Source: a virus. From it: a stretch of 64,000 nt of DNA. Below are positions 1,829 to 53,962 of the stretch, piece by piece. How positions within the stretch are numbered: position 1 is the stretch's first letter; the number at the start of each line of letters is the position of its first letter. A program made the translations under genes and the position numbers. Where the stretch lies: the UHGV virus genome UHGV-0277313. The stretch is one strand, 5' to 3'. Below the pieces are notes generated by a model. The model worked only from the letters and a program-made list of their open reading frames with translations. It did no database searches and had not been told where the DNA came from.

Positions 1829-1835
1829 ATTTGAT

Positions 1836-1868
1836 AAAGGGAAGGTTTAGTCTTCCCTTTATTTTTTA
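1836..1868 (+). terminator. rho-independent terminator
   Basis: The stem aaagggaag/cttcccttt with loop gtttagt is followed by attttttat. Confidence 0.7.
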
Positions 1869-1877
1869 TATTATATG

Positions 1878-1906
1878 TTGACAAATGTCTTAATTCTTGA
1901 TAATAT
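1878..1906 (+). promoter_or_regulatory. sigma70-type promoter (TTGACA-N17-TAATAT)
   Basis: The sequence reads tatgTTGACAaatgtcttaattcttgaTAATAT. Confidence 0.6.
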
Positions 1907-1932
1907 AAAATTATAAAGAGTGGAGAAAAACA

Positions 1933-2562
1933 ATGCTTATTTGTAATAGAGACGACTTTGAAGAAATGAAATCAAAAATCAAGGATGGCGTTTTAGCCGA
2001 TTCCTTATTTTTTGATACTGATATCTATGAAGATCTTTCAGATGTGCTTGTGACTGGATTTGTTTATATCAAAAGCAAAATCTCGAATGTAAATTACATC
2101 CCCTCTAAAATTGAAGGTTCATTTACTATTGAACCGGAAATTTCATTTGCTGAATTGGAACACGACATTTATTTTGATAACATCAAAGTTGACAATTTGC
2201 TGACAACAAAAGGGATGAGTCATTTGCATTTGATTTATGAAATCATACCCGAACTGAAACCTATTGCTGTTGCGTCAGTTAGGTTTTATTTAAGTGATAA
2301 TTTTGATGATGATACTATAGAATATTTACCCTTGTCTGTTATTAATGCTACGAGAGTAAATGAAAAGATTCTTATACCTTCATCGGAAACGGTTTTAAAA
2401 TTGCGCAAACTTCTTCCTGAAAGTGCATTGTCAGAATATTTAAAATCTGAAAACTTTAATCCGATTACTTATATTTTCGCAACTGATATAGGTTTAGAGG
2501 AACACTACGCTTATGTATACGCTGCTAATAATATCAACGACGCACTTTTGGAAACGATTTGA
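1933..2562 (+). CDS. hypothetical protein
   Basis: The ORF encodes 209 aa with the SD ggagaaaaac. Its stop overlaps the next gene by ATGA. Confidence 0.55.
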   Translation: MLICNRDDFEEMKSKIKDGVLADSLFFDTDIYEDLSDVLVTGFVYIKSKISNVNYIPSKIEGSFTIEPEISFAELEHDIYFDNIKVDNLLTTKGMSHLHLIYEIIPELKPIAVASVRFYLSDNFDDDTIEYLPLSVINATRVNEKILIPSSETVLKLRKLLPESALSEYLKSENFNPITYIFATDIGLEEHYAYVYAANNINDALLETI

Positions 2563-3110
2563 TGACAAAATTTTTTACCGACCCAAACAGTTTAATAGAA
2601 TATGTTAATTCCGACGAATATTTGAAAGAAAAAGAATGCATTTACTATTCAGGTATGTTGTCATCAAAGATGTCTGAATTACATATTCTAGGACACTTTC
2701 AATGGGATAATTTATTTTCATTTGCTTCTAGTGCTAAAGGTTTGCCAAAAACAATTGATGGTACTTTAACCATTTCAGGAGTCGAGCTTTTCAATTGTGA
2801 AGGATTTCCAGAAACTGTTGGTAATCTTGTTATGACAACAACATGTAATGTATTAAGATGGAAAGGTTTAGAAAACACTACAATAGAATGTGTTAGTACA
2901 ACCAATGTATTAAACTTGCCTGTTGAGTGCGATTATAAGTATCATCCGCGTATTTTTAAAACAAACTCAAGAGTTCAAGTATGGTTTCCGAAAAACAAAA
3001 CAAGATATGTATGCACAGATTTGTTTAAGTTAAAACCAGCTGTTTTAAACAGAAAAATAAAAGAGTTATTAACGGAAGATTTATCGCAAAATCTTCTTGA
3101 CATAATTTAA
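2559..3110 (+). CDS. hypothetical protein (weak leucine-rich-repeat-like periodicity)
   Basis: The ORF encodes 183 aa and is translationally coupled to the upstream ORF. Confidence 0.5.
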   Translation: MMTKFFTDPNSLIEYVNSDEYLKEKECIYYSGMLSSKMSELHILGHFQWDNLFSFASSAKGLPKTIDGTLTISGVELFNCEGFPETVGNLVMTTTCNVLRWKGLENTTIECVSTTNVLNLPVECDYKYHPRIFKTNSRVQVWFPKNKTRYVCTDLFKLKPAVLNRKIKELLTEDLSQNLLDII

Positions 3111-3161
3111 CTATTTTGATAACTTAAACAAATAAACAAGCTAGTTTAAGGAAAAAGAATC

Positions 3162-3521
3162 GTGACATATATTCATCCATTCTACAAAAAAGAATATGAT
3201 GTTGTGATAGGTGAAACTTTATTTTTTAATTATATAACGTTCAAAATTTCGGATGCACAATATGAAACTTTTGTTTTTGATGACGATACGGGGAAGATGT
3301 TTCCGATTACTAAAATAATTGAAAATGTAATCTTAACTGATAACCAACAAGCCGCATTAACAACAAATAAAAGACAGACTGAAGAATTATGGAAGACTTT
3401 AAAAATAATTGGAGATAAAGAATTAACACAAAAATTTGCCAGTTTTGTAAATGGTGATAATGGTAAAGACAAATCAGTTTTAGATTGGTTGAAACTATTT
3501 AGGAAGAAAAATGAATCTTGA
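3162..3521 (+). CDS. hypothetical protein (GTG start)
   Basis: The ORF encodes 119 aa; the SD aaggaaaaag lies before the GTG start. Confidence 0.45.
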   Translation: MTYIHPFYKKEYDVVIGETLFFNYITFKISDAQYETFVFDDDTGKMFPITKIIENVILTDNQQAALTTNKRQTEELWKTLKIIGDKELTQKFASFVNGDNGKDKSVLDWLKLFRKKNES

Positions 3522-3666
3522 TTCTTTTTTTCAACAAAATTTAAATATACAAACTGTTGAGATTTGTTTTGCGATTCTAGTTTTGTTTTTATTTATAAAA
3601 AGAATTTATAAGAAATCAAAACGGAAAAATTTGTTTAAACGTACACGATTGATGTAAGGAAAAATC

Positions 3667-4281
3667 ATGAAAGTTAAATTAATTCAATGCACTGGTTTTG
3701 AACCTGCTATGCTAGGATCTATGTTAAGTTATGGTAAAACGTCTTTAAAAGACCTTGAACTGTTTGCCGATACAAAAACAGTCCGTCCTGAAATTCAGAA
3801 ACGTTTTGAACCGCTATCTAAAACATTGGTTTCATCAGGTGCAGGCCATGATAAATTTTTAGAACAGATTCAATATTGGATTGCTGTTCGTGCGCCTTTG
3901 CGATTTCATAAACAATTAGATACGTATCGTCATACATCTAAAAGTTCTGAATCAACAATGCATTTGGCATGGAAAGGTGGCGTTGATGAAACCGACTTTG
4001 AAAATTTTGAATGCATCTATCCTGAAACTTTGGAACGTCTTAATGCTGATATTAAACGTTATTGTGAAGAAAAAGATACAAAAAAGAAAAAAGAATTGTT
4101 TGATATCATCACGATGAACCTGCCTGATGGCTATTTACAGACACGTATGTTGAATACAAGTGCCAAAAGTTTACGTAACATGTATTTTCAACGTCGTGAT
4201 CATAAATTAGGCGAATGGCACGACTTCTGTGATGCTATCAAAACATTTCCGTATGCTGATTTAATTACTTTAGAAAAATAA
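3667..4281 (+). CDS. thyX: ThyX (Thy1) family protein, flavin-dependent thymidylate synthase-like with non-canonical RHR motif
   Basis: The segment GHDKFLEQIQYWIAVRAPLRFHKQLDTYRHTSKSSES aligns to T. maritima ThyX [36 protein letters not shown]. The segment NTSAKSLRNMYFQRRDHKLGEW aligns to [20 protein letters not shown]. Confidence 0.6.
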   Translation: MKVKLIQCTGFEPAMLGSMLSYGKTSLKDLELFADTKTVRPEIQKRFEPLSKTLVSSGAGHDKFLEQIQYWIAVRAPLRFHKQLDTYRHTSKSSESTMHLAWKGGVDETDFENFECIYPETLERLNADIKRYCEEKDTKKKKELFDIITMNLPDGYLQTRMLNTSAKSLRNMYFQRRDHKLGEWHDFCDAIKTFPYADLITLEK

Positions 4282-4283
4282 AA

Positions 4284-4460
4284 ATGTTTAAGCAATACAC
4301 GTTTTACTTGATCCGTTGGCAATTATCGACACCAATTTTAGCCGCTGTGATTTATGCATTAAAAAATTGCAGCACTTTAACCAGTACGATAATTGCCAAT
4401 TTAATCGGAGGCTTAATCTTCTTTTGGGTTGATCGTTTAATTTTCAAAAAAAGAAAATAA
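4284..4460 (+). CDS. small hydrophobic (membrane) protein, 58 aa, absent from the >=60-aa track
   Basis: An ATG lies 3 nt after the thyX stop. The product MFKQYTFYLIRWQLSTPILAAVIYALKNCSTLTSTIIANLIGGLIFFWVDRLIFKKRK has two hydrophobic segments. Confidence 0.35.
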   Translation: MFKQYTFYLIRWQLSTPILAAVIYALKNCSTLTSTIIANLIGGLIFFWVDRLIFKKRK

Positions 4461-4461
4461 T

Positions 4462-4837
4462 ATGATGGAAAACGAATTAAATGATTTAAAAAGGATGAAA
4501 TCAGAAAAAACAAAAACTCTTAATCAGTTGAAAGCTGATAAAGAGATGTATGAAACAATTCTGAAAGACATAAATAAAAAAAATTGAAGCCACAGAAAAA
4601 GAAGTTGAACGGTTAAATAATGTTTACACTGGTTTAACTAAATATGAATACTTAACAGATCATGCTTTAGTACGTTACCTTGAACGTTCAGGTGCTGTTG
4701 ATGTTAAAGCTATTCGTAAAAATCTTCTTAATGAGAGTGTGGCTTTAGGATTAATAAACGGTGCCAATAAAGTTATGATTGGTAACTTTGAGTTTATTGT
4801 TAAAAATGGTAAAATAGTAACATCGATTGATAAATAA
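4462..4837 (+). other. two short coiled-coil ORFs separated by a +1 shift at an A8 run (candidate frameshift/slippage site or homopolymer error)
   Basis: The ORF starting at 4462 (MMENELNDLKRMK...KDINKKN) stops just after A8 at about 4576-4583. The +1 frame continues IEATEKEVERLNNVYTGL...SIDK to 4837 with no start codon of its own until about 4775. Confidence 0.3.
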
Positions 4838-45538: not shown

Positions 45539-45800
45539 TTAAATCAACTCCATCAACAATGTTTGAAACTCTTTTTTGTTCATTTCGCAAATCATCAATA
45601 TATGTATCTTTTATAGTTAAATACTTACCTAAATCAATTAAACGATCCAGACGAACAATAAAGCTATTAACAAAATCGCTCCCTAAATTTGATGCATCAC
45701 ACAATTCGCGAACAAAACCAATTAATTCTTCACGATCTTGAATAAATCTGACCGCCTGATTTTCATCAAAAACTGTTTTATTTTCTTCAGGTGTACTCAT
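45525..45800 (-). CDS. hypothetical protein
   Basis: The ORF encodes 91 aa. Confidence 0.35.
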   Translation of the reverse strand: MSTPEENKTVFDENQAVRFIQDREELIGFVRELCDASNLGSDFVNSFIVRLDRLIDLGKYLTIKDTYIDDLRNEQKRVSNIVDGVDLNALD

Positions 45801-46147
45801 GCTTCGTAATCCAAAATTCCTAATTTAAATTCACGTTCAGTGTCTTCATTATCATACCTAATTTTTACAAAATCAAGTAAATTTTTTATCACAATAAAAT
45901 CTGCACTGAACCACTCACCACTTAAATGGTTAAATTTTAGATAGCGATGCATGATCGACTCCAGAATTTTTGCAGGAGCTTCTTCAATTTCTACACAATA
46001 TTCAAGTGACAATTTCTTTGGGTTACCTGTCTGAAGTTGTCTGACCCTTCTTTTTGGATCCTTTGACAACCCTACTTTAAAAGCTTCACCATTCGAAATC
46101 ACATAAATAAAACTACTCATTTCTAAAATATTTAAATAACATTTCAT
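45797..46147 (-). CDS. T5orf172/MUG113-type GIY-YIG superfamily nuclease domain protein
   Basis: The segment FIYVISNGEAFKVGLSKDPKRRVRQLQTGNPKKLSL matches the T5orf172 pattern. It lies directly downstream of the terminase. Confidence 0.5.
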   Translation of the reverse strand: MKCYLNILEMSSFIYVISNGEAFKVGLSKDPKRRVRQLQTGNPKKLSLEYCVEIEEAPAKILESIMHRYLKFNHLSGEWFSADFIVIKNLLDFVKIRYDNEDTEREFKLGILDYEA

Positions 46148-46173
46148 AACCTGCGATTAGAAAAATCAAATTT

Positions 46174-49100
46174 TTAGATTTCAATTACTTCCTGTTTCTT
46201 CGAGTCATAAACAAAACTATCTTCAGCTTTAACCTCTTGTGTTTTAGCCTCAATATATGGAAACTCTACAGGAGTTGCATCTAAATATGCATTATTAACA
46301 GCACCTACGCAATTGTGTACAAACACATTACAATCCAATGCAAAATTATGAATTGAATTTAATACAATATCATATACAGGTTTTGTATTTTCAATTTTTG
46401 TAATCTGTGTAACATACACATGTAAATTTTCAACTTTAGATTTCTGTTCTGCTAATTTATCACCTAAATCGTGTTTTAGCAAATATCGTCTATATCCTTC
46501 TGGATTTACTTGCTTCATTAACGCTAACCCTTCGTTAATGATTTTTGTTCTAGCCCGTTTCATAACAGTACGATCATGAAAAGCTTTAATTTCACGACCA
46601 GTCATTGCATGTAAATTTGTATGTTCAATATTTGTTAAAGGGACCAAATTTTCAGGTCTATCATCATTTTTATTATGTGACTTGTGATGAATAACTGTAA
46701 ATTTACTACCATCAATTACAGCACGTTTTTTTGCTTCTGCAATAGCGTTTGACAATAAGTCTTGAGAAACAATTTTATATAAAAATTTCGGCGTTCCTTT
46801 AAATGGATTAACAACTTTTCTATATCTATCATGATAGTTTAATTCATGATAATAATTAAAAGGCATTAACTCATCATACAGAGCAATATCTTCTGCCTGT
46901 TTATATTCACCGCTTTTCATTAGAATTAAATGATCATCAGTACATGCAAAGGTTTTTCCGTTGCTTAAAGTAAACTGCAACAAAGTTTCAGGAATATGTT
47001 TTTCTAACACACGTTCAATCTTAACAGGCTTTAACTGTTTTGATTCACAATCACATGCTAAAACCCATTCATGCTCAATATCAGAATTGTATAACTCTTC
47101 TATTGTTAAAACTTTTCCAGACAATAAAAAGATTTTTGTATCGTAAGCCAAACAACTATCAGCCATATCTTTTTTGTGCGTTGTTACTAGTTTTTTATCT
47201 GCAACACCAATATAACCTAATTGTTCACGCAAATATGGGCAATCACCAACTTTAATACGTCCTGTAATCATCCACTGTGCAAAATTTAAATATGCCGTAA
47301 TATCACGATCTACTGATTGATAACGTACGTTCTCAAATTCATGATGCTGCTGTAATGATTGTCTTACATATTCAGAATTGTGAACGAACACACCAGCCGA
47401 TAATGCGAAATTTGGAGCTTTATCTATACTAATATCATACACATCTTCATATTCGTCTAGAAATTCAATATATTTGACTTTATGATTAATTCTATGCTTT
47501 TTGAACCACTCTTCACGATATTTAGTCTTTTCTTTGTTGATAGTTTCTAACGAAACAGTTTTTTTATAATTTTTTCCAAACAATTTTATTAAATGACCTC
47601 TAGAGCCAGGATATCTCACTTTCATTTTCGCAACATATTCTGGATTTTCCCATTTTAATAAATTTGCTTTTGTTATATTCTGTAATGCAATATCTGATGT
47701 TTTACTACCTAATCTCGGTTTTCTTGTTTTATTTAAAATTTTAATTCTTTCAGATTGCTCTTTAGCTCTTTTGCAATCATCTTTTTTAAACGATTTTTTT
47801 GTACAATCAATCATCTCTTGTTTATATTTTTTTGCAACTAATTTCCCAGATTCACTTTGACACTTCCTTGCATATGCTGATTTATTTTTATCTGCATAAA
47901 ATTTTTCTTTTATTTTCTTGCATTTGATAGATCTCTTCTTTCTGGCTTCTTCTGTTTGAGATTTTTCTACAACCCTATTCCAAACAGTTGGATCTAATCT
48001 TAATAATTCTTGAAAATGCTCAACATGCACTTTCAAATGTTCATCTTTTGTTAACAATACTAAATTGTTTGGATTATTATTTAATTTATTAAAATCTTTA
48101 TGGTGTATGTGAAAGCCTTTAGTTGACCCATATAAACTATTTGCTATTTTTCCATAAGTTAACCCCCAACTATTTGTTAAAGGGTTTAATACATTTTCAT
48201 AACCTTTATCAGAATATTTCCTATATAAAGGCATCAATGAATCACCACAATTTAAATATTGTGCCTGAATAAAATCACCATTCCTTAACATAAAACGATG
48301 ATCTAATGTGCATCTTATTTCTTCATCATTATCTAACACAACTTTCATAATGCGTTTTTTGCCATTATTTTTAGCATTAATAATTCGTCCAGGAACAACT
48401 TTTTTTGTTTTCAGGTCTAACGTATATGTAAACAACTCCTCGCCACTATTGAATCTTTCTAAAATATCTTTAAAAGAAACTTCCTCACCATTTAATAATG
48501 ATACTTTTGTATCACCTGTGAAACATTGAAACTGATCATACGAAATTGTCTTAATATACACACCTGCTTTATCACGCAAATCCAATGATAATTGTTTAAT
48601 AGCATCATGATCAATTCGGTTTGGCGCTGAAATCCATGATACAAAATCAGCCACAAAAACAGTTTGATGTTCTCCTAAATCATTAACAACATACTCTTTA
48701 TGCCATAACGAATATCCTGCTTGTGACGTTGACTGTGAAGCTAGATCAACGTGAACGAACCTCGGTGCATTTGGATACCTTGCTAAACGTGGTCCTAAAG
48801 TTGTTTCTTGAAATAATTCTTTTGGCAACTTATCAAGTAAAGGTATCTGATCACCTAAAGGCGCTTCTAAATGAACCTCTGGTAATAATTGTTTACAATC
48901 ACCGATACGTGACAAATCGTCAAAAGGTCTATCAGATGTATCTGTCGTTCTACCAGCAATGTTTTGAATAGCCGCTTCAATATTATTTTCAAACTCACGT
49001 CTATACTCAATAGGAACTTCTAATAATTCACAACCTGCAGGTGGTACATAATTTAGTTTTTCTAAAGGTACATCATTATATTCTTCAGGCAACACTTTTG

Positions 49101-49521
49101 ACGGGTGTGTTTTAGTACCAATATAAATCCAAAAATGTTTACCTGATAATCCTAAAGCATCACCCTTAACTTCCCAAATAGCTGGATCTAACAATAATGT
49201 TTCTGGATCGTCAGGTTTGATTTTATGTATATATTCCCAAACCATTCCTGATTTTGATTTAGATGATGAAATCAACGCACAATAAATTAATGATGAATTT
49301 AAAAAACGTGATCTAATACGTTCGCGTAAACCTGTATAAAGTTTAAACGCTTCAGATGAATCCTTCTCTTCAGCTTCGTCAAAAATTGAGTTACATGTTA
49401 CAACTCCAGACGATAATAGATAATTGTGCAAATCATTATTTACTTCTAAATTATATACTTTTACAGGTTGTTCAAGTTTTTTAGTTTTTATGGAATTAAT
49501 CTTCATAAGTAAAACTTTCAT
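46174..49521 (-). CDS. terL: terminase large subunit, C-terminal polypeptide (split-intein C-half + Walker B/nuclease exteins + two HNH inteins)
   Basis: The exteins SIFDEAEE (Walker-B-like), RFVHVDLASQSTSQAGYSLW and KKDMADS|CVGAV match the T4 gp17 nuclease motifs YIATLDCSEGRGQDYHAL and HDDLVMSL. Confidence 0.65.
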   Translation of the reverse strand: MKVLLMKINSIKTKKLEQPVKVYNLEVNNDLHNYLLSSGVVTCNSIFDEAEEKDSSEAFKLYTGLRERIRSRFLNSSLIYCALISSSKSKSGMVWEYIHKIKPDDPETLLLDPAIWEVKGDALGLSGKHFWIYIGTKTHPSKVLPEEYNDVPLEKLNYVPPAGCELLEVPIEYRREFENNIEAAIQNIAGRTTDTSDRPFDDLSRIGDCKQLLPEVHLEAPLGDQIPLLDKLPKELFQETTLGPRLARYPNAPRFVHVDLASQSTSQAGYSLWHKEYVVNDLGEHQTVFVADFVSWISAPNRIDHDAIKQLSLDLRDKAGVYIKTISYDQFQCFTGDTKVSLLNGEEVSFKDILERFNSGEELFTYTLDLKTKKVVPGRIINAKNNGKKRIMKVVLDNDEEIRCTLDHRFMLRNGDFIQAQYLNCGDSLMPLYRKYSDKGYENVLNPLTNSWGLTYGKIANSLYGSTKGFHIHHKDFNKLNNNPNNLVLLTKDEHLKVHVEHFQELLRLDPTVWNRVVEKSQTEEARKKRSIKCKKIKEKFYADKNKSAYARKCQSESGKLVAKKYKQEMIDCTKKSFKKDDCKRAKEQSERIKILNKTRKPRLGSKTSDIALQNITKANLLKWENPEYVAKMKVRYPGSRGHLIKLFGKNYKKTVSLETINKEKTKYREEWFKKHRINHKVKYIEFLDEYEDVYDISIDKAPNFALSAGVFVHNSEYVRQSLQQHHEFENVRYQSVDRDITAYLNFAQWMITGRIKVGDCPYLREQLGYIGVADKKLVTTHKKDMADSCLAYDTKIFLLSGKVLTIEELYNSDIEHEWVLACDCESKQLKPVKIERVLEKHIPETLLQFTLSNGKTFACTDDHLILMKSGEYKQAEDIALYDELMPFNYYHELNYHDRYRKVVNPFKGTPKFLYKIVSQDLLSNAIAEAKKRAVIDGSKFTVIHHKSHNKNDDRPENLVPLTNIEHTNLHAMTGREIKAFHDRTVMKRARTKIINEGLALMKQVNPEGYRRYLLKHDLGDKLAEQKSKVENLHVYVTQITKIENTKPVYDIVLNSIHNFALDCNVFVHNCVGAVNNAYLDATPVEFPYIEAKTQEVKAEDSFVYDSKKQEVIEI
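46312..47154 (-). mobile_element. intein 5 (281 aa) with HNH homing endonuclease, inserted in the terminase nuclease motif
   Basis: The intein runs from CLAYDTKIFLLSG to HNFALDCNVFVHN|C. The HNH motif is VIHHKSHNKNDDRPENLVPLTNIEHTNLH. Confidence 0.65.
47377..48525 (-). mobile_element. intein 4 (383 aa) with HNH homing endonuclease
   Basis: The intein runs from CFTGDTKVSLLNG to NFALSAGVFVHN|S. The HNH motif is HIHHKDFNKLNNNPNNLVLLTKDEHLKVH. Confidence 0.65.
49390..49521 (-). mobile_element. split-intein C-fragment (IntC, 44 aa) at the start of the ORF
   Basis: The fragment MKVLLMKINSIKTKKLEQPVKVYNLEVNNDLHNYLLSSGVVTCN is followed by a +1 Ser. It aligns to the C-terminal blocks of the mini-intein 2 (VYDIEVPVYHNFAVVTDSGNLIILHN). 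Confidence 0.6.
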
Positions 49522-50458
49522 TGAAAATCAAATTAATTGTACTAACAAACTTAGATACTGAACCAAATTTTTTAATTAAACTATCCCACAAAGGCAAAGA
49601 TCTTTTGTTTTTATCCGAAAGATTTCTTGCTTTCTGATATGACAACTTGTTGACAACATTACCTTCAATTAATTTAACAACATTATAATATCTAGCTAAC
49701 GTAGCTAACTCTTGTTTTTCTCTTGCTCTTTCTGGATACAATTTATTAAACTCTTGCGTATTTTTTGAATGCAATTTTCGTGTAGAATCTGTAATTACCC
49801 TGTTTTTATTTGAATTAACAACTACATCGTGATGCCTTTGTGATGAATTAAATTTTCTCATCAATTCTCTTCCATGTTCTATACAATGCATCTTTCCTTC
49901 CTCTGAACGTAAATACTGTTTCATTCTTTTTGATGCACTTTCTCTACCCTCTATACTTTTGCTATAAGGTATTAAAACTTTTTTAACACGTTCTGCTCTT
50001 CTTTTTATAAACTCTTTATCGTTATTAATCTTGTTTAAATTATTTCTTGCACAAGATTTCATATATTCTGAAGACATCAGATCTTTCATTCTATTTCTAG
50101 CCCTATTCTTTGCTTCGACAGTTCTAGAATATTCAACAAGATGTTTTGCAGTATTTAGCAATTTTGCTGAATCACTTGATAAACCTTTCCCACCTTCAAC
50201 TAAATTATAACATTTATCATCATTTACAGTGTTACTATTAACAAGTACGCGTTCAAAGTTAAATGCATCTTTCTCTGAATCAAAAAAACGTAAAATTTTT
50301 AATTGAAAATTTTCTTTTCCATATTTTTTTATGGCTTTTTTTATTAAAACGCCAGAACCTAAATACCTATCATTAAGGTTATTTGTTGCATGTTTTCCAT
50401 AATAAAATTTACCGTTTATTAAATTAGTTATTTTATAAACAAAAATAAATTTACTCAT
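49496..50458 (-). mobile_element. free-standing GIY-YIG homing endonuclease gene lying between the two halves of the split intein
   Basis: The N-terminus MSKFIFVYKITNLINGKFYYGKH...RYLGSG...NFERVLV...YNLVEGG is a GIY-YIG domain. The C-half has basic NUMOD-like repeats. The ATG lies 2 nt after the upstream stop; the track start at 50470 is a GTG. Confidence 0.7.
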
Positions 50459-50459
50459 A

Positions 50460-53213
50460 TTACATAACACCTAACAATTCGTCTTGATCAGTTAAATCTT
50501 TTGCATGCTTGCACCATTGATTATTATACATTATTAAAGTTTTATCAATTCCTATCTTTGGGTTTTTTATAGGGAATTTATGATCTGGCGTGCATCTTAT
50601 GCTCTGTCCGTTTTCCAACTCTATTTCAACTAACTCATTTACTTCTTTAGTACATTCACAATTATTAATATTATTCCAAGTAAACGTCCCATCAAGTTCT
50701 CTAGTTTTTACTTTATATTGATTACAACTTTTTGCAATATCTTCTATTCTTATATTTCCACTATCTGTTACAACTTCTGTATCACCTGTTAAACAACCAA
50801 AGACACTGTAACCAATAATGTGATTAATATTTGAACCTACCGACAAGTATACATTGTTTGGAAACCTAATGCCATTGCCTTGACGACAGAATGGAACCGG
50901 ATCATTTGGCCCAAACGAATCGAAAGCCGTCATTTTACGAACTTCATGAAAACATGGCGAATTACGAATCATTTCCAATACAGGCTTTAATGCAGTATCC
51001 TGCGCTTGCTGCAATGTAACAGAAATCATCAATGCAGATAAAACAGTATCAGGTGCAATATTGAATAATTTATGAGGCGATCTTAAACAACATATACGAT
51101 AAAGTGCATAAATTAAACCTCTACGCGCAATAGTTGATTTTCCTGAATTGTGTAAAATAATTAAATTTCCTGAATCCGTTACTACAGCAAAATTGTGATA
51201 AACAGGGACTTCTATATCATAGACCGCACATTTTTTATCAAGATCCTGCACATTTTTAACAGTAACACTACCATTATTTGCACACAATATATCATTCTTT
51301 TTTAAATCTTTCGCTTCAACATAATGACCTGAACTCAATAGAAATCTATGATCGCTCGTACATTCTAACGTTGTTCCGTCAGATAAACTAACACTTAATA
51401 CCTTTCTATTCTTTCCAGTACAACGCGCATTAAAAGCTTTTGCTTTTACAAATACATTATTTTTAATGTCATACGATAAAACATTAAATTCATTATCTTC
51501 ACCTAAACTTGCTAAATTTTCAATGGACACTAGTTTGTTATCAGACAATATTTTTGTATCACCAGACAAACAACCAATACTTCCACGAAAAACACAATTA
51601 GAAGCATATACCCCACTGTTAATTGCAAAATTATGATTGCCACGAATACAAACGTTGAAAGTGGATTCGCTTTTTTCTAACAATTTTATACTAACAATTT
51701 TATGATTATATTTGATTTCAACTTTTGTGTTAATATCAAACTTATTGCACCAGGCCTTTAAAGTCTTTACTTTAATACAAGCATTACTTGCACATTCCTC
51801 TATAGTATAACCACAACTTAATATATACCTAACTTCTTCTTCAGTCACCTTTTTTAATAAATCTTTATGATTGATATTATAAAGTTTTAACTTATTGATG
51901 ATATAACATCTGGAACAATTTAATTTCCTTTCAACTTCTCTTAATGAAAAACTATTTTTTAAAGTTTCAATAAAACGCTCCTTTGATATATCTAACCTTG
52001 CTGAAGGATTATTTTTTAAGTTTTTTTCTCTTTGTTTTATTCTTAAATTTTCTTTTAATAATGCACCTTTTTCGCTATTCCAAAAAGCAACAGAAATTTT
52101 GGAAGCATAATTATCTTGCAAATTCCTCAATGACATACGTTTTGAAGCCAACTTATGTTGTTGTTCGTCTGCCCACCTGTTTGCTGAACCTTTTTTTAGT
52201 CTATTTTTTACAGAATCAACAACTTCTTTGACACCATTCTTATAAGCTTCGTTATACAATTTTAATTGTTTTCTTGCGAATTTTGTATGATAATCTAGAT
52301 GTGTCTTACTATCTAAATAAATTAAATTAGTTGGATTGTTATTGTATTTGTTACCATCTTTATGGTGTATGACTTCATAACGTACCCTTTCACCTCTATT
52401 CTTTACAGGTGCTTTATATTTTCTGCCATATTTCCACAATGCACTTAAACGATGTGTGTATTCTGAACTTGCAACAGAAATTTTTGAAGGTATGATTACT
52501 TTTTCATATGATTTCACACCTCTTGCAGTTTTGTCTTCAACAAACCTCTCAAAAGGCATTAATGAATCACCGACTTTTAAATCCTTTGTCAATACCCACT
52601 TATTATTTCTATTCAAAAATTTATGATTTTCAGTACACTTAAAAACTTTTCCATTATCTAAAGTTATTTCATAAACTCTCTTTTCACCACTATATTGAAT
52701 ACCTTCTATTTCACCGGGTTCGACAGAATGTTTTTGTTCGTTCCACGTGTATACATAACAACCTTCATAACCAAATAAACATAAATCTGCTACAGTTTTT
52801 ACAGAACCATCCATTAATGGAATTTCTACATCACCAGTAACACATTCAAAATATTGATTAGATGGATCAAATATTTTTGCTAAAATCTGTCGCCAATAAG
52901 GATAAATAATGGCATACGAATTGCCCATATATGCATCATCTTTCAAGAATTCTTGAATAGTTGGCATATGTTTTTTATAAAGCAAAACATCAAGCTGATT
53001 TAAAAACTGTTCCTGCCCTGTATAATACAAATAGAAACCCATTCTTTTTTCAAAATCAGGCAACTGTTCTAAACGTGAACCACGGGGAATTTGTTCTGAA
53101 TAAAACGAATAAATATCATTAAATTCTTTTGAATGTATCAAGTTAATAATGTTATCTTGATCTTCAACTGAATATACAGGAATTTGATAATTATTGTGTA
53201 AAATCTCAACCAT
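50460..53213 (-). CDS. terL: terminase large subunit, N-terminal polypeptide (N-extein, P-loop, inteins 1-2, split-intein N-half)
   Basis: The exteins give MVEIL...NQYFE | CVFRGSIG | SGKSTIARRGL...HIIGYSVFG, reconstituting the Walker A motif GSIGSGKST. Confidence 0.65.
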   Translation of the reverse strand: MVEILHNNYQIPVYSVEDQDNIINLIHSKEFNDIYSFYSEQIPRGSRLEQLPDFEKRMGFYLYYTGQEQFLNQLDVLLYKKHMPTIQEFLKDDAYMGNSYAIIYPYWRQILAKIFDPSNQYFECVTGDVEIPLMDGSVKTVADLCLFGYEGCYVYTWNEQKHSVEPGEIEGIQYSGEKRVYEITLDNGKVFKCTENHKFLNRNNKWVLTKDLKVGDSLMPFERFVEDKTARGVKSYEKVIIPSKISVASSEYTHRLSALWKYGRKYKAPVKNRGERVRYEVIHHKDGNKYNNNPTNLIYLDSKTHLDYHTKFARKQLKLYNEAYKNGVKEVVDSVKNRLKKGSANRWADEQQHKLASKRMSLRNLQDNYASKISVAFWNSEKGALLKENLRIKQREKNLKNNPSARLDISKERFIETLKNSFSLREVERKLNCSRCYIINKLKLYNINHKDLLKKVTEEEVRYILSCGYTIEECASNACIKVKTLKAWCNKFDINTKVEIKYNHKIVSIKLLEKSESTFNVCIRGNHNFAINSGVYASNCVFRGSIGCLSGDTKILSDNKLVSIENLASLGEDNEFNVLSYDIKNNVFVKAKAFNARCTGKNRKVLSVSLSDGTTLECTSDHRFLLSSGHYVEAKDLKKNDILCANNGSVTVKNVQDLDKKCAVYDIEVPVYHNFAVVTDSGNLIILHNSGKSTIARRGLIYALYRICCLRSPHKLFNIAPDTVLSALMISVTLQQAQDTALKPVLEMIRNSPCFHEVRKMTAFDSFGPNDPVPFCRQGNGIRFPNNVYLSVGSNINHIIGYSVFGCLTGDTEVVTDSGNIRIEDIAKSCNQYKVKTRELDGTFTWNNINNCECTKEVNELVEIELENGQSIRCTPDHKFPIKNPKIGIDKTLIMYNNQWCKHAKDLTDQDELLGVM
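50463..50795 (-). mobile_element. split-intein N-fragment (IntN, 111 aa) terminated by a stop codon
   Basis: The fragment CLTGDTEVVTDSGNIRIEDIAK...RCTPDHKF...KHAKDLTDQDELLGVM* starts directly after the extein ...YSVFG. Confidence 0.6.
51147..51572 (-). mobile_element. intein 2 (142-aa mini-intein) splitting the P-loop
   Basis: The intein runs from CLSGDTKILSDN to YHNFAVVTDSGNLIILHN|SGKST. It has no endonuclease domain. Confidence 0.65.
51597..52844 (-). mobile_element. intein 1 (416 aa) with HNH homing endonuclease
   Basis: The intein runs from CVTGDVEIPLMDG to GNHNFAINSGVYASN|C. The HNH motif is VIHHKDGNKYNNNPTNLIYLDSKTHLDYH. Confidence 0.65.
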
Positions 53214-53242
53214 TAGAAACCTATTAGAAAATTTTTAATGAA

Positions 53243-53962
53243 TTACTCTTCGTTCAATTTCTTCTTTTCTTCTGCTTTTATTTCATGAAAAGTTGCATCT
53301 AACATAGTTGCAATCTTTTCAGTTCCAGTTTGTATTTTTTCTTCTGGCTTGTATTCAACCTGACTTTGTCTTGGAACACCTATTTGACCCCAAACACCTG
53401 CCGCTTCCGCCATTTTAGTCATGCTGCTGACTGTTTTAGGTTCAAGTGATTTCATTACATTTTCATTATTACTATAAACATTTTGTTGTTGATTCAATTG
53501 ATTTTCAACATGATTATCATAAACATTATGTGTTGGACCTTGCATGTTGATATTGATACCACCGGACCGTGCGCCAAAAATTCTATCTAAATCAGCAACA
53601 CCTGCTTCATTAATAGCTCGATACATGTCAGTTAACTCTGCGGGCGTGCAAGAAACCATTACTTCATTAAAACGTGACAACAAATTTCGTTTCATATCTT
53701 CTGCAATCAACCCGTTTTGAAAACGATAATTCAAATATGTCTGCGAAATAAAATCAGTCATATTTTTTAAAGTTGATGCACTTTCTTTAGAATTGATCTC
53801 TTTTAAAGCATTTGCAAAATTTATTACTGACTTAAAAATTCCTAATGTATGTTTATTGCTTTCATCACGATTATAATCATCAGCACTAATCATACCTGAT
53901 GACCCACACCCTTTTACAGGAACCATATCTTCTTCAAAATCGTCATTGTAGTAATTGGCCAT
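53243..53962 (-). CDS. hypothetical protein upstream of terminase (small-terminase position, unsupported)
   Basis: The ORF encodes 239 aa. Confidence 0.4.
   Translation of the reverse strand: MANYYNDDFEEDMVPVKGCGSSGMISADDYNRDESNKHTLGIFKSVINFANALKEINSKESASTLKNMTDFISQTYLNYRFQNGLIAEDMKRNLLSRFNEVMVSCTPAELTDMYRAINEAGVADLDRIFGARSGGININMQGPTHNVYDNHVENQLNQQQNVYSNNENVMKSLEPKTVSSMTKMAEAAGVWGQIGVPRQSQVEYKPEEKIQTGTEKIATMLDATFHEIKAEEKKKLNEE

Follow-up and report, generated by a model that had tools for sequence, protein, structure and literature searches.

Introduction

Genes fractured by a homing endonuclease gene (HEG) that is free-standing, with the two parts of a split intein on either side of it, were first described in 2009; a phage terminase was among the host genes and a GIY-YIG enzyme among the intervening endonucleases (Dassa et al. 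2009; PMC2677866). The terminase of that study is gp17-like and originates from Lake Gatun, and overlap of the HEG with the downstream gene is also noted there (PMC2677866). The model of 2009 rested mostly on partial metagenomic fragments. The present analysis concerns a complete locus of this type in the virus genome UHGV-0277313, where the large terminase gene (TerL) is broken within an intein by a GIY-YIG HEG. The stretch of DNA analyzed has a length of 64,000 nucleotides (nt) and is termed the window; all coordinates are window positions.

AceL-TerL and GOS-TerL are naturally split terminase inteins for which trans-splicing rates have been measured (PMC11766414). In the inteins of actinobacteriophages, terminase inteins included, free-standing HEGs were inferred to invade the endonuclease slot, and most such invasions are predicted to give split inteins (bioRxiv 10.1101/2025.01.02.630785).

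A preliminary description of the window, made from the sequence alone, had recognized the split intein and the intervening gene and had considered this layout to be unreported in a terminase. The latter view is wrong, as shown by the terminase of Dassa et al. (2009; PMC2677866), by AceL-TerL and GOS-TerL (PMC11766414) and by a further example from IMG/VR (L082, see below). The description of the gene itself was correct with respect to the split intein but was incomplete, as four further contiguous inteins are present. The new features of the present case are its canonical break point, its complete phage context of approximately 277 kb, an allelic series and the presence of five inteins in one terminase. 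Full-text literature searches turned up neither this phage group nor any terminase intein with a canonical split.

The split intein and the intervening gene

The locus consists of three open reading frames (ORFs). The N-terminal and C-terminal fragments of the split intein are termed IntN and IntC.

50460..53213, minus strand: TerL-N precursor ORF, 917 amino acids (aa), in the order extein 1, intein 1, 8-aa extein, intein 2, extein 3, IntN, stop
50463..50795, minus strand: IntN, 111 aa, split-intein N-fragment with Cys1 and block B TPDH, ending past block N4 (AKDLTDQDELLGVM)
50468..50472, minus strand: Shine-Dalgarno-like AGGTG of the HEG, 9 nt ahead of its ATG and within the final IntN codons
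49496..50458, minus strand: free-standing GIY-YIG HEG, 320 aa, in its own frame, ATG at 50458 and TAA at 49496
46174..49521, minus strand: TerL-C precursor ORF, up to 1115 aa, in the order IntC, extein 4, intein 4, extein 5, intein 5, extein 6
49390..49506, minus strand: IntC, 39 aa, split-intein C-fragment (MKINSIKTKKLEQPVKVYNLEVNNDLHNYLLSSGVVTCN) with blocks F and G and the terminal Asn

These ORFs lie where the preliminary description had placed them, with one refinement, namely that IntC probably starts at the ATG at 49506. The three occupy three different frames, all on the minus strand and in the original order of the host gene. Cys1 of IntN (CLTGDTEVV...RCTPDHKF...LLGVM) directly abuts the extein sequence ...HIIGYSVFG, and the IntN stop codon (TAA, 50460–50462) is separated from the HEG ATG by a spacer of 1 nt. 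The AGGTG motif and its spacing ahead of the HEG are as found before most genes of the window, and relatives have AAAGGTG at this position.

IntC has two candidate starts. Translated from the ATG at 49521, the TerL-C ORF starts with MKVLLMKINS...VVTCN (MKVLLMKINSIKTKKLEQPVKVYNLEVNNDLHNYLLSSGVVTCN), followed by Ser+1-IFDEAEE, and the IntC fragment is 44 aa long; from the ATG at 49506 it is 39 aa. The second ATG is more likely the true start because a genome-typical GAAAG(G) motif is found 7–8 nt upstream of it (GAAAG at 49515–49519) and because the same start is called in a relative, contig L002. The HEG 3′ end overlaps the TerL-C ORF by 11 nt if the start is at 49506, or by 26 nt if it is at 49521.

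The preliminary description had assigned both fragments to the Hint fold. The Pfam families Intein_splicing and PT-HINT are matched in both large ORFs, and fused IntN+IntC covers positions 10–153 of the 155 positions of Intein_splicing (E = 8.9e-9). The break falls just past block N4, which is the slot usually taken by an endonuclease domain, as had been suggested; sister inteins 1, 4 and 5 have their HNH domains after the equivalent D-x-LMPF motif. The intein is of the canonical naturally split type, with a break between blocks N4 and C2 and with fragments of 111 and 39 aa (canonical range used: IntN approximately 90–125 aa, IntC approximately 35–50 aa). The best sequence matches of the fused pair in the PDB are the naturally split DnaE intein (7qil) and then NrdJ-1 (8ubs).

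The residues of a class-1 intein are present, i.e. Cys1, TPDH in block B, the terminal Asn of ...TCN and Ser+1. The fragments display opposite charges, which fits the charge complementarity described for natural split inteins. IntN has a net charge of −6 in the window and of −4 to −5 in a diverged lineage of the element (L002 and L003, see below), and the first 20 residues of IntC carry +4 and +5, respectively. The last 30 residues of IntN have a charge of −2 to −3 in the split alleles, versus +3 for the equivalent stretch of a contiguous mini-intein.

Sequences between the ORFs were also searched. No Rfam match at E ≤ 1, and thus no ribozyme, was found across 46000–53400. No terminators were found between the three ORFs, nor a terminator-like hairpin at the HEG spacer, and internal promoter-like sites are at the chance level (10 observed versus 10.7 expected). 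Location of the HEG inside a group I intron, with splicing at the RNA level, was considered and rejected, as there is no Rfam match and the 1-nt spacer and the overlapping ORFs leave no room for an intron.

The GIY-YIG endonuclease

The earlier assignment of the middle ORF to the GIY-YIG homing endonucleases is supported by its score against the Pfam GIY-YIG family (PF01541), which is 24.5 bits where the curated cut-off is 22.6, and by its match to PHROG 314, "homing endonuclease" (3e-33). The catalytic domain encompasses approximately aa positions 1–92 (window 50183–50458). The N-terminal ~90 residues are 50–60% identical to hundreds of phage and metagenome proteins with GIY-YIG (PF01541) or SegE_GIY-YIG (PF19835) domains; these proteins have varied C-termini, and some are named "group I intron endonuclease". 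When a profile of the domain was compared with the PDB, the sole matches were to the I-TevI catalytic domain (1LN0, 1MK0; E = 6e-4), whereas a single-sequence search of the PDB gave chance matches only. Residues Y8, Y19, E69 and N85 are invariant and align with the GIY Tyr, the YIG Tyr, the Glu and the Asn of I-TevI.

The C-terminal ~230 aa are basic and presumably form the target-specific DNA-binding part. Full-length relatives of this region are confined to the phage group described here. No close copy of the HEG was found in IMG/VR, only relatives of its catalytic domain, and the window has no HEG paralogue and no other Hint-bearing or HEG-like ORF.

Recurrence of the layout in related genomes

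The identical HEG protein is encoded by 15 contigs, 8 of which are over 200 kb in length, and a scaffold of 276,920 bp carries the sequence of window positions 46000–53300 identically. The layout of N-half, HEG and C-half is found in at least nine assemblies, which represent four haplotypes with different sets of other inteins (the window and L001; L010–L012; L002; L003–L006). Contigs of 175–277 kb with conserved synteny recur over many samples. The source samples include SAMEA4731444, SRR12268558 and SAMN15871463.

In L002 and L003–L006 the element has diverged from that of the window, with aa identities of 70% for IntN, 58% for the HEG and 64–67% for IntC. This lineage retains the stop past IntN, a separate AAAGGTG-N6-ATG start of the HEG, and the ATGAGAATTAA overlap of the IntC start with the HEG stop. 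It also keeps the splicing residues (CLTGE..., TQDH, and ...TCN followed by S). The spacer between IntN and the HEG, 1 nt long in the window, measures 11 nt in L002 and L003, and the ORFs stand in other frames relative to each other. As this diverged lineage keeps three ORFs with another spacer and other frames, a sequencing frameshift, which the preliminary description had wished to see checked, can be regarded as excluded as the cause of the layout, and so can a conserved read-through fusion. Fusion of IntN, HEG and IntC by read-through or frameshifting was rejected as well on account of the in-frame stops.

Alleles at the insertion site

The insertion site is located three residues before the Walker B Asp-Glu. 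The preliminary description had predicted that splicing would create the junction ...YSVFG-SIFDEAEE..., and intein-free alleles with a DNA identity of ~99% have exactly this sequence; a contiguous mini-intein allele exists as well. Alleles with ~99% identical flanking DNA display the junction ...YSVFGSIFDEAEE... The empty site reads exactly ...HIIGYSVFGSIFDEAEE... in P0003, P0005/L008 and L094, and the empty site of P0001 has Val in place of Ile (...GSVFDEAEE...). Between the window and the empty allele L008 there are 5 differences in the 351 nt upstream of the site and 3 in the 600 nt downstream. The predicted ligation product is thus present as a germ-line sequence in near-isogenic phages.

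A contiguous mini-intein of 148 aa, without an endonuclease, occupies the site in P0002/L007 and P0016. The N-terminal 225 nt and the C-terminal 84 nt of the L007 mini-intein are 98–99% identical to IntN and IntC of the window.

The Gly codon just upstream of the insertion (50793–50798) is GGT in the split and mini-intein alleles, whereas L008, an empty allele, has GGA. No other difference between the window and L008 occurs within 30 nt of the site, and this one could be a mark of co-conversion or a change in the target site.

Exchange of the endonuclease cassette and of the whole element

Comparison of the window with the mini-intein allele L007 delimits the following segment.

49473..50570, minus strand: exchanged HEG cassette, 1.1 kb, comprising the final 108 nt of IntN, the HEG and approximately 25 nt past the HEG stop

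Outside of the cassette (flanking exteins, nt 1–225 of IntN and the last 84 nt of IntC) there are 9 mismatches in 909 nt, whereas in its left arm, the last 108 nt of IntN, 43 of the 102 aligned nt differ (Fisher p = 2e-38). Identity returns 25 nt past the HEG stop. The tail of the window IntN near the HEG has an aa identity of ~70% to the diverged split lineage versus ~38% to the mini-intein. Both candidate starts of IntC lie within the cassette, as does the stop codon of IntN. In the model of Dassa et al. the invading endonuclease gene carries control elements of the fractured gene (PMC2677866), and the content of the cassette, i.e. stop, HEG and starts, is as this model predicts.

A second exchange is seen between L002 and L003. 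Their flanking exteins differ at 81 of 491 sites (16.5%; 18% upstream and 15% downstream) with synonymous sites near saturation, whereas the 1,410-nt IntN-HEG-IntC region differs at 27 sites (1.9%; Fisher p = 3e-28). On the upstream side mismatches cease 21 nt ahead of IntN codon 1, and on the downstream side they reappear 3 nt past the intein end. This points to a recent transfer of the whole IntN-HEG-IntC composite from one diverged genome to another, the transferred segment being bounded at the intein insertion site. The locus appears to hold two nested mobile units, the HEG cassette and the whole IntN-HEG-IntC element, and mobility of the HEG is supported by the sharp discontinuities in identity at the boundaries of both.

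A broader reading, for and against which the chances seem about even, is that the phage population may hold every stage from intein to split intein (empty, mini-intein and HEG-fractured) in near-isogenic backgrounds with ~99% identical flanks. The composite would then consist of one selfish element nested in another, each homing on its own scale, with mini-inteins as the target of the cassette and empty sites as that of the whole unit, and the acidic tail of IntN would be a post-fracture adaptation for association of the fragments. If this is correct, the locus, with five of six intein sites occupied, would provide the most complete natural record of the intein and homing endonuclease life cycle in a single gene. 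Candidate target regions of the HEG product are ...GATAATTTAATTGGT-TGTAAAATAAAG... in L007-type DNA for homing of the cassette and ...GTCTTTGGA-TCAATTTTTGAC... for homing of the whole element.

Proposed mechanism and alternatives

The reading favored here, with a probability of roughly 0.8, is that the locus is a genuine fractured gene in which a TerL mini-intein was split by an inserted GIY-YIG HEG and the protein halves are rejoined by trans-splicing. Trans-splicing offers the best explanation because of the architecture and its conservation, the allelic junction, the mobility at two levels and the purifying selection.

According to the proposed scheme, a mini-intein was present three residues upstream of the Walker B Asp-Glu, and a free-standing HEG would have been inserted in its loop at the usual position of an endonuclease domain. 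The cassette would have brought with it the upstream stop, the ribosome-binding site and ATG of the HEG, and the downstream start that overlaps the HEG 3′ end. The three abutting or overlapping ORFs would be co-transcribed and translationally coupled. The acidic IntN and the basic N-terminus of IntC would associate and fold into one Hint domain, and class-1 trans-splicing (Cys1 thioester, attack by Ser+1, cyclization of the terminal Asn) would join ...YSVFG to SIFDEAEE..., thus rebuilding the Walker B strand of the ATPase. With the other four inteins splicing in cis, the end product would be a terminase of 655 aa. The GIY-YIG enzyme would cut HEG-less alleles of co-infecting relatives, and either the cassette or the whole element would be copied.

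Several points weigh against this scheme. Splicing, association of the fragments, and the activity and target of the endonuclease are steps that we infer from sequence. Five splicing events must all succeed for each terminase molecule. Block F of the intein has Asn for the usual Asp (VYNLEV), and Cys takes the place of the penultimate His. Relatives have GAAAGG as the ribosome-binding motif of IntC, and the GAAAGT of the window is weaker. No Pfam family was matched by the C-terminal ~230 aa of the HEG product, the candidate DNA-binding region. The ratios of nonsynonymous to synonymous change (dN/dS) between the two element lineages, 0.12–0.14 for IntN, approximately 0.17 for IntC, 0.30–0.32 for the HEG and 0.02–0.045 for the exteins, are rough, as synonymous sites are near saturation (proportion of synonymous differences, pS, 0.58–0.75), although the nonsynonymous proportion (pN) is far below pS everywhere. 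On these values IntN, the HEG and IntC all appear to be under purifying selection.

Asp in block F and a penultimate His are common in class-1 inteins but are not universal. As the block F Asn and the penultimate Cys recur both in the diverged lineage and in the contiguous mini-intein version of this essential gene, they are evidently compatible with function.

Among the alternatives, the one that survives best, though it is improbable, is that the HEG is an inactive relic, that the layout is passively inherited and that the breaks in identity represent ordinary homologous recombination. Phage genomes are highly mosaic in any case, and the equivalent of I-TevI Arg27 cannot be confidently aligned in the HEG product. 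A relic would not be expected to remain intact at 320 aa in both lineages despite an aa divergence of 42%, with pN at 0.28 versus pS at 0.58 and with the catalytic Tyr, Tyr, Glu and Asn invariant. In addition the transferred segment ends 21 nt and 3 nt from the intein boundaries, which is as expected for break repair at the insertion site.

Somewhat less probable again is a two-piece terminase in which the intein halves act as a non-covalent dimerization module and no peptide bond is formed, as in Aeh1 NrdA. HEG-fractured genes that work without splicing are documented, on the account of Aeh1 nrdA that is cited (in PMC2677866; PMC3045599), and the Asn of block F and the penultimate Cys would be consistent with loss of splicing. 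The same two variants are found, however, in the contiguous mini-intein allele, which must splice to give the essential enzyme, and both diverged lineages retain Cys1, TPDH/TQDH, the terminal Asn and Ser+1. Without splicing, moreover, approximately 150 residues would stay lodged in the Walker B beta-strand of the ATPase core.

It is very unlikely that the fractured terminase is a dead gene of a defective phage in which another terminase carries out packaging. The analysis covered 64 kb of a genome of ~277 kb, which leaves room for a second gene, but purifying selection between the split lineages is very strong on both extein halves (dN/dS as above), the 175–277 kb contigs with conserved synteny recur in many samples, and the window contains no other Hint-bearing or HEG-like ORF.

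An artefact of sequencing or assembly, with the real gene being one ORF having an ordinary intein and an internal endonuclease domain, is effectively refuted: metagenomic assemblies can hold frameshifts, and contig L013 has an unrelated, unconfirmed one in another intein, but the HEG is identical on 15 contigs, the layout is present in at least nine assemblies, a lineage with 58% HEG identity keeps the IntN stop, the separate Shine-Dalgarno and ATG, and the ATG/TAA overlap despite its other spacer and frames, to fuse the ORFs each lineage would have to lose a stop codon and gain two frameshifts that compensate, and GIY-YIG is not known as an in-frame intein domain (Dassa et al. 2009; PMC2677866).

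The terminase gene, its other inteins and the phage

Removal of the Hint elements at the Cys1 and (H/S/C)N-C/S boundaries leaves an extein of 655 aa. Its segments and the remaining inteins are as follows.

52845..53213, minus strand: extein segment 1, aa 1–123, end ...NQYFE, joined to CVFRGSIG in intein-free alleles P0001 and P0005
51597..52844, minus strand: intein 1, 416 aa, contiguous, HNH domain, CVTGDVEI...VYASN then C; absent in P0001, P0003 and P0005
51573..51596, minus strand: extein segment 2, 8 aa, CVFRGSIG, first half of the Walker A P-loop
51147..51572, minus strand: intein 2, 142-aa mini-intein within the P-loop, GSIG-SGKS site
50796..51146, minus strand: extein segment 3, 117 aa, SGKSTIARRG...HIIGYSVFG
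48526..49389, minus strand: extein segment 4, 288 aa, Ser+1-IFDEAEE (Walker B Asp-Glu), nuclease motif HVDLAS
47377..48525, minus strand: intein 4, 383 aa, contiguous, HNH domain, site ...SYDQFQ-SEYV
47155..47376, minus strand: extein segment 5, 74 aa
46312..47154, minus strand: intein 5, 281 aa, contiguous, HNH domain, site ...KKDMADS-CVGAV; in all close relatives
46177..46311, minus strand: extein segment 6, 45 aa, C-terminus

The host gene is assigned as the terminase large subunit on sequence and model evidence, namely the PHROG match, collinear tblastn matches, invariant motifs and the fold of a homologue. The spliced extein matches PHROG 2, "terminase large subunit". By tblastn it aligns in one uninterrupted segment with genes from cultured phages. 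In Pseudomonas phage QdP_Psa3 (40% identity, 91% coverage, E = 1e-133) the match is labelled "hypothetical protein", and the matching proteins of Xanthomonas phage phiXF1 and of the Maribacter phages are annotated as "terminase large subunit". In the family alignment with intein-free homologues GSIGSGKS, FDE, HVDLA, DQFQS and KDMxD are invariant. The AlphaFold model of an intein-free homologue (P0019; 38% identical, pLDDT 77) has phage large terminases as all of its top 30 PDB matches, with HK97 first at 5e-15, followed by D6E, T4 gp17, Sf6 and T7. The local copy of Pfam gave no significant family for the spliced extein, and a profile of the intein-free homologues gave nothing meaningful against PDB sequences.

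According to a paper of 2023, the highest number of inteins in one protein is five, in Prp8 of Anaeramoeba, and was four before that (PMC10710043). The five inteins of the window terminase equal this published maximum. Their presence and absence is combinatorial over the haplotypes, with one to five per gene.

Inteins 1 and 2 are only eight extein residues apart, and intein 2 lies within the Walker A P-loop. At so short a distance each would be expected to disturb the homing site of the other. A sixth insertion site (APRF-C...SN-CHVDLAS), at the nuclease Asp motif, is filled in L010–L012 and L094. In L013 (1–2964; P0021) the HNH intein of this sixth site is frameshifted (...NENRYCKYLY-stop, followed by an overlapping ORF, MRIDIVSTY...). 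This would yield a second split intein by decay of an endonuclease domain; it is found on one contig of 4.9 kb and may be an assembly error.

The intein at the DQFQ site of L008 (P0005/P0006) is the window intein 4 minus the HNH region (LMPLYRK-SIKVKYIEF), a clean deletion. It appears to be a natural conversion of a full intein to a mini-intein within the same population.

Next to the terminase are genes for a tail sheath, an NAD-dependent ligase and a helicase, and the GC content of the window is 31.8%. Given the tail sheath gene among the neighbors and the 276,920-bp scaffold, the carrier of the element is therefore a large contractile-tailed phage with a genome of ~277 kb. A search of 46000–53300 against GenBank phages for near-identical DNA gave no match, so that the phage is uncultured and unannotated. 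No tRNA genes were found in the window.

Directly downstream of the terminase there is a 116-aa ORF with T5orf172/MUG113 domains (45797–46147, minus strand; domains from the precomputed Pfam annotation of L001), which may be another free-standing nuclease gene. At this location L007 has a resolvase and OrfB_IS605/TnpB pair instead, and in L003–L005 a glycosyltransferase of 721 aa is inserted between the terminase and this ORF.

L094 (CALBJM010000301.1) and L095 (CALAFU010000275.1) are contigs of this phage binned into metagenome-assembled genomes labelled "uncultured Erysipelotrichaceae" and "Candidatus Melainabacteria". These contradictory labels are probably binning artefacts and do not provide evidence of the host.

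Significance of the locus

As a natural case of fracture by a free-standing endonuclease gene, the locus is complete and replicated, and its evolutionary intermediates are still segregating. It allows testable questions to be put, i.e. whether the target of the GIY-YIG enzyme is the mini-intein, the empty terminase site or both, and whether the charges of the break-proximal segments were remodelled during the change from cis- to trans-splicing. Useful raw material for protein-ligation tools is provided by two natural split-intein pairs that are new, 70% identical in IntN and 64% in IntC, each with its break at the canonical position and with Ser+1 at the junction, together with the matched contiguous version. 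If the scheme proposed here is correct, an essential phage packaging motor would tolerate five protein-splicing events, one of them in trans.

Comparison with known systems

The locus resembles the ocean loci of Dassa et al. 2009 (gp41-1, gp41-8, NrdJ-1, IMPDH-1 and NrdA-2) in that the host N-half, IntN, HEG, IntC and the host C-half follow each other in this order on one strand. It further shares with the loci of that study the break between N4 and C2, the overlap of the HEG 3′ end with the downstream start, the opposite charges of IntN and IntC and the phage origin, and GIY-YIG is one of the two HEG types reported for them. The 39-aa IntC is within their range (33–54 aa), and the 111-aa IntN is just above it (88–105 aa). 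Unlike those ocean loci, the host gene here is a terminase, the +1 residue is Ser, block F has Asn, and the complete locus is contained in a genome of ~277 kb. The HEG spacer is 1 nt (11 nt in L002 and L003) versus 27–51 nt plus hairpins in the 2009 loci, and empty-site and mini-intein alleles in near-isogenic backgrounds are at hand here, unlike in the earlier cases.

AceL-TerL, GOS-TerL and the "Terminase" of Dassa et al. share with the window a natural split intein in a phage large terminase (PMC2677866; PMC11766414). Their break is near the N-terminus, however, with an IntN of 25–37 aa and an IntC of 104–122 aa, as opposed to 111 and 39 aa here. The terminases with these atypical inteins are T4 gp17-like, whereas the one described here is of a distant, PF27249-type family, and at the level tested the sequences of the inteins show no relationship.

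The IMG/VR contig L082 (IMGVR_UViG_3300028549_000026) displays at positions 1834–4702 a T4-like TerL fractured by a GIY-YIG HEG of 291 aa. Its intein is atypically split, with an IntN of ~32 aa (CAEENSLITV...RMGE-stop) and an IntC of ~115 aa (...NINISN, then CLMCDEAAF). The insertion is located in the same Walker B strand as in the window (...GMTIN-CLMCDEAAF versus ...YSVFG-SIFDEAEE), and the GIY-YIG catalytic domain is related. L082 is grouped with the atypical TerL inteins by its architecture, not by demonstrated homology to the AceL-TerL, GOS-TerL and Dassa inteins.

A different arrangement is found in L048 (1–1778; IMGVR_UViG_3300033068_000523), where a RecA/UvsX-like ATPase has a canonical split intein (...NHTYQ-CVTGETKV...LILAIQ-stop; MELKGIKVKS...MVTHN-TMDM). 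The spacer is 207 nt with no endonuclease gene between the halves, and a GIY-YIG gene is present ~3 kb downstream.

In Aeh1 nrdA (mobE) and the gp43 DNA polymerase gene of Aeromonas phage 25 (a GIY-YIG gene), as these are cited in PMC2677866, an essential gene is likewise split by a phage HEG and the enzyme still works. As cited there, these cases have no intein and the halves are held together non-covalently, whereas here complete and conserved splicing motifs flank the break. The actinobacteriophage inteins invaded by HEGs remain one ORF with the endonuclease nested in another frame, out-of-frame or antisense, whereas the present locus is a true split into two genes.

Lastly, in collaborative homing a free-standing HEG is associated with an endonuclease-less group I intron, e.g. 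in cyanophage psbA and in T-even phages. The likeness to the present locus is that a splicing element is joined with a separate HEG in one composite mobile unit, in which splicing offsets the cost of insertion and the HEG gives mobility. The difference is that splicing in those systems is of RNA and the HEG is beside the intron, whereas here it would act at the protein level and the HEG is located inside the splicing element itself.

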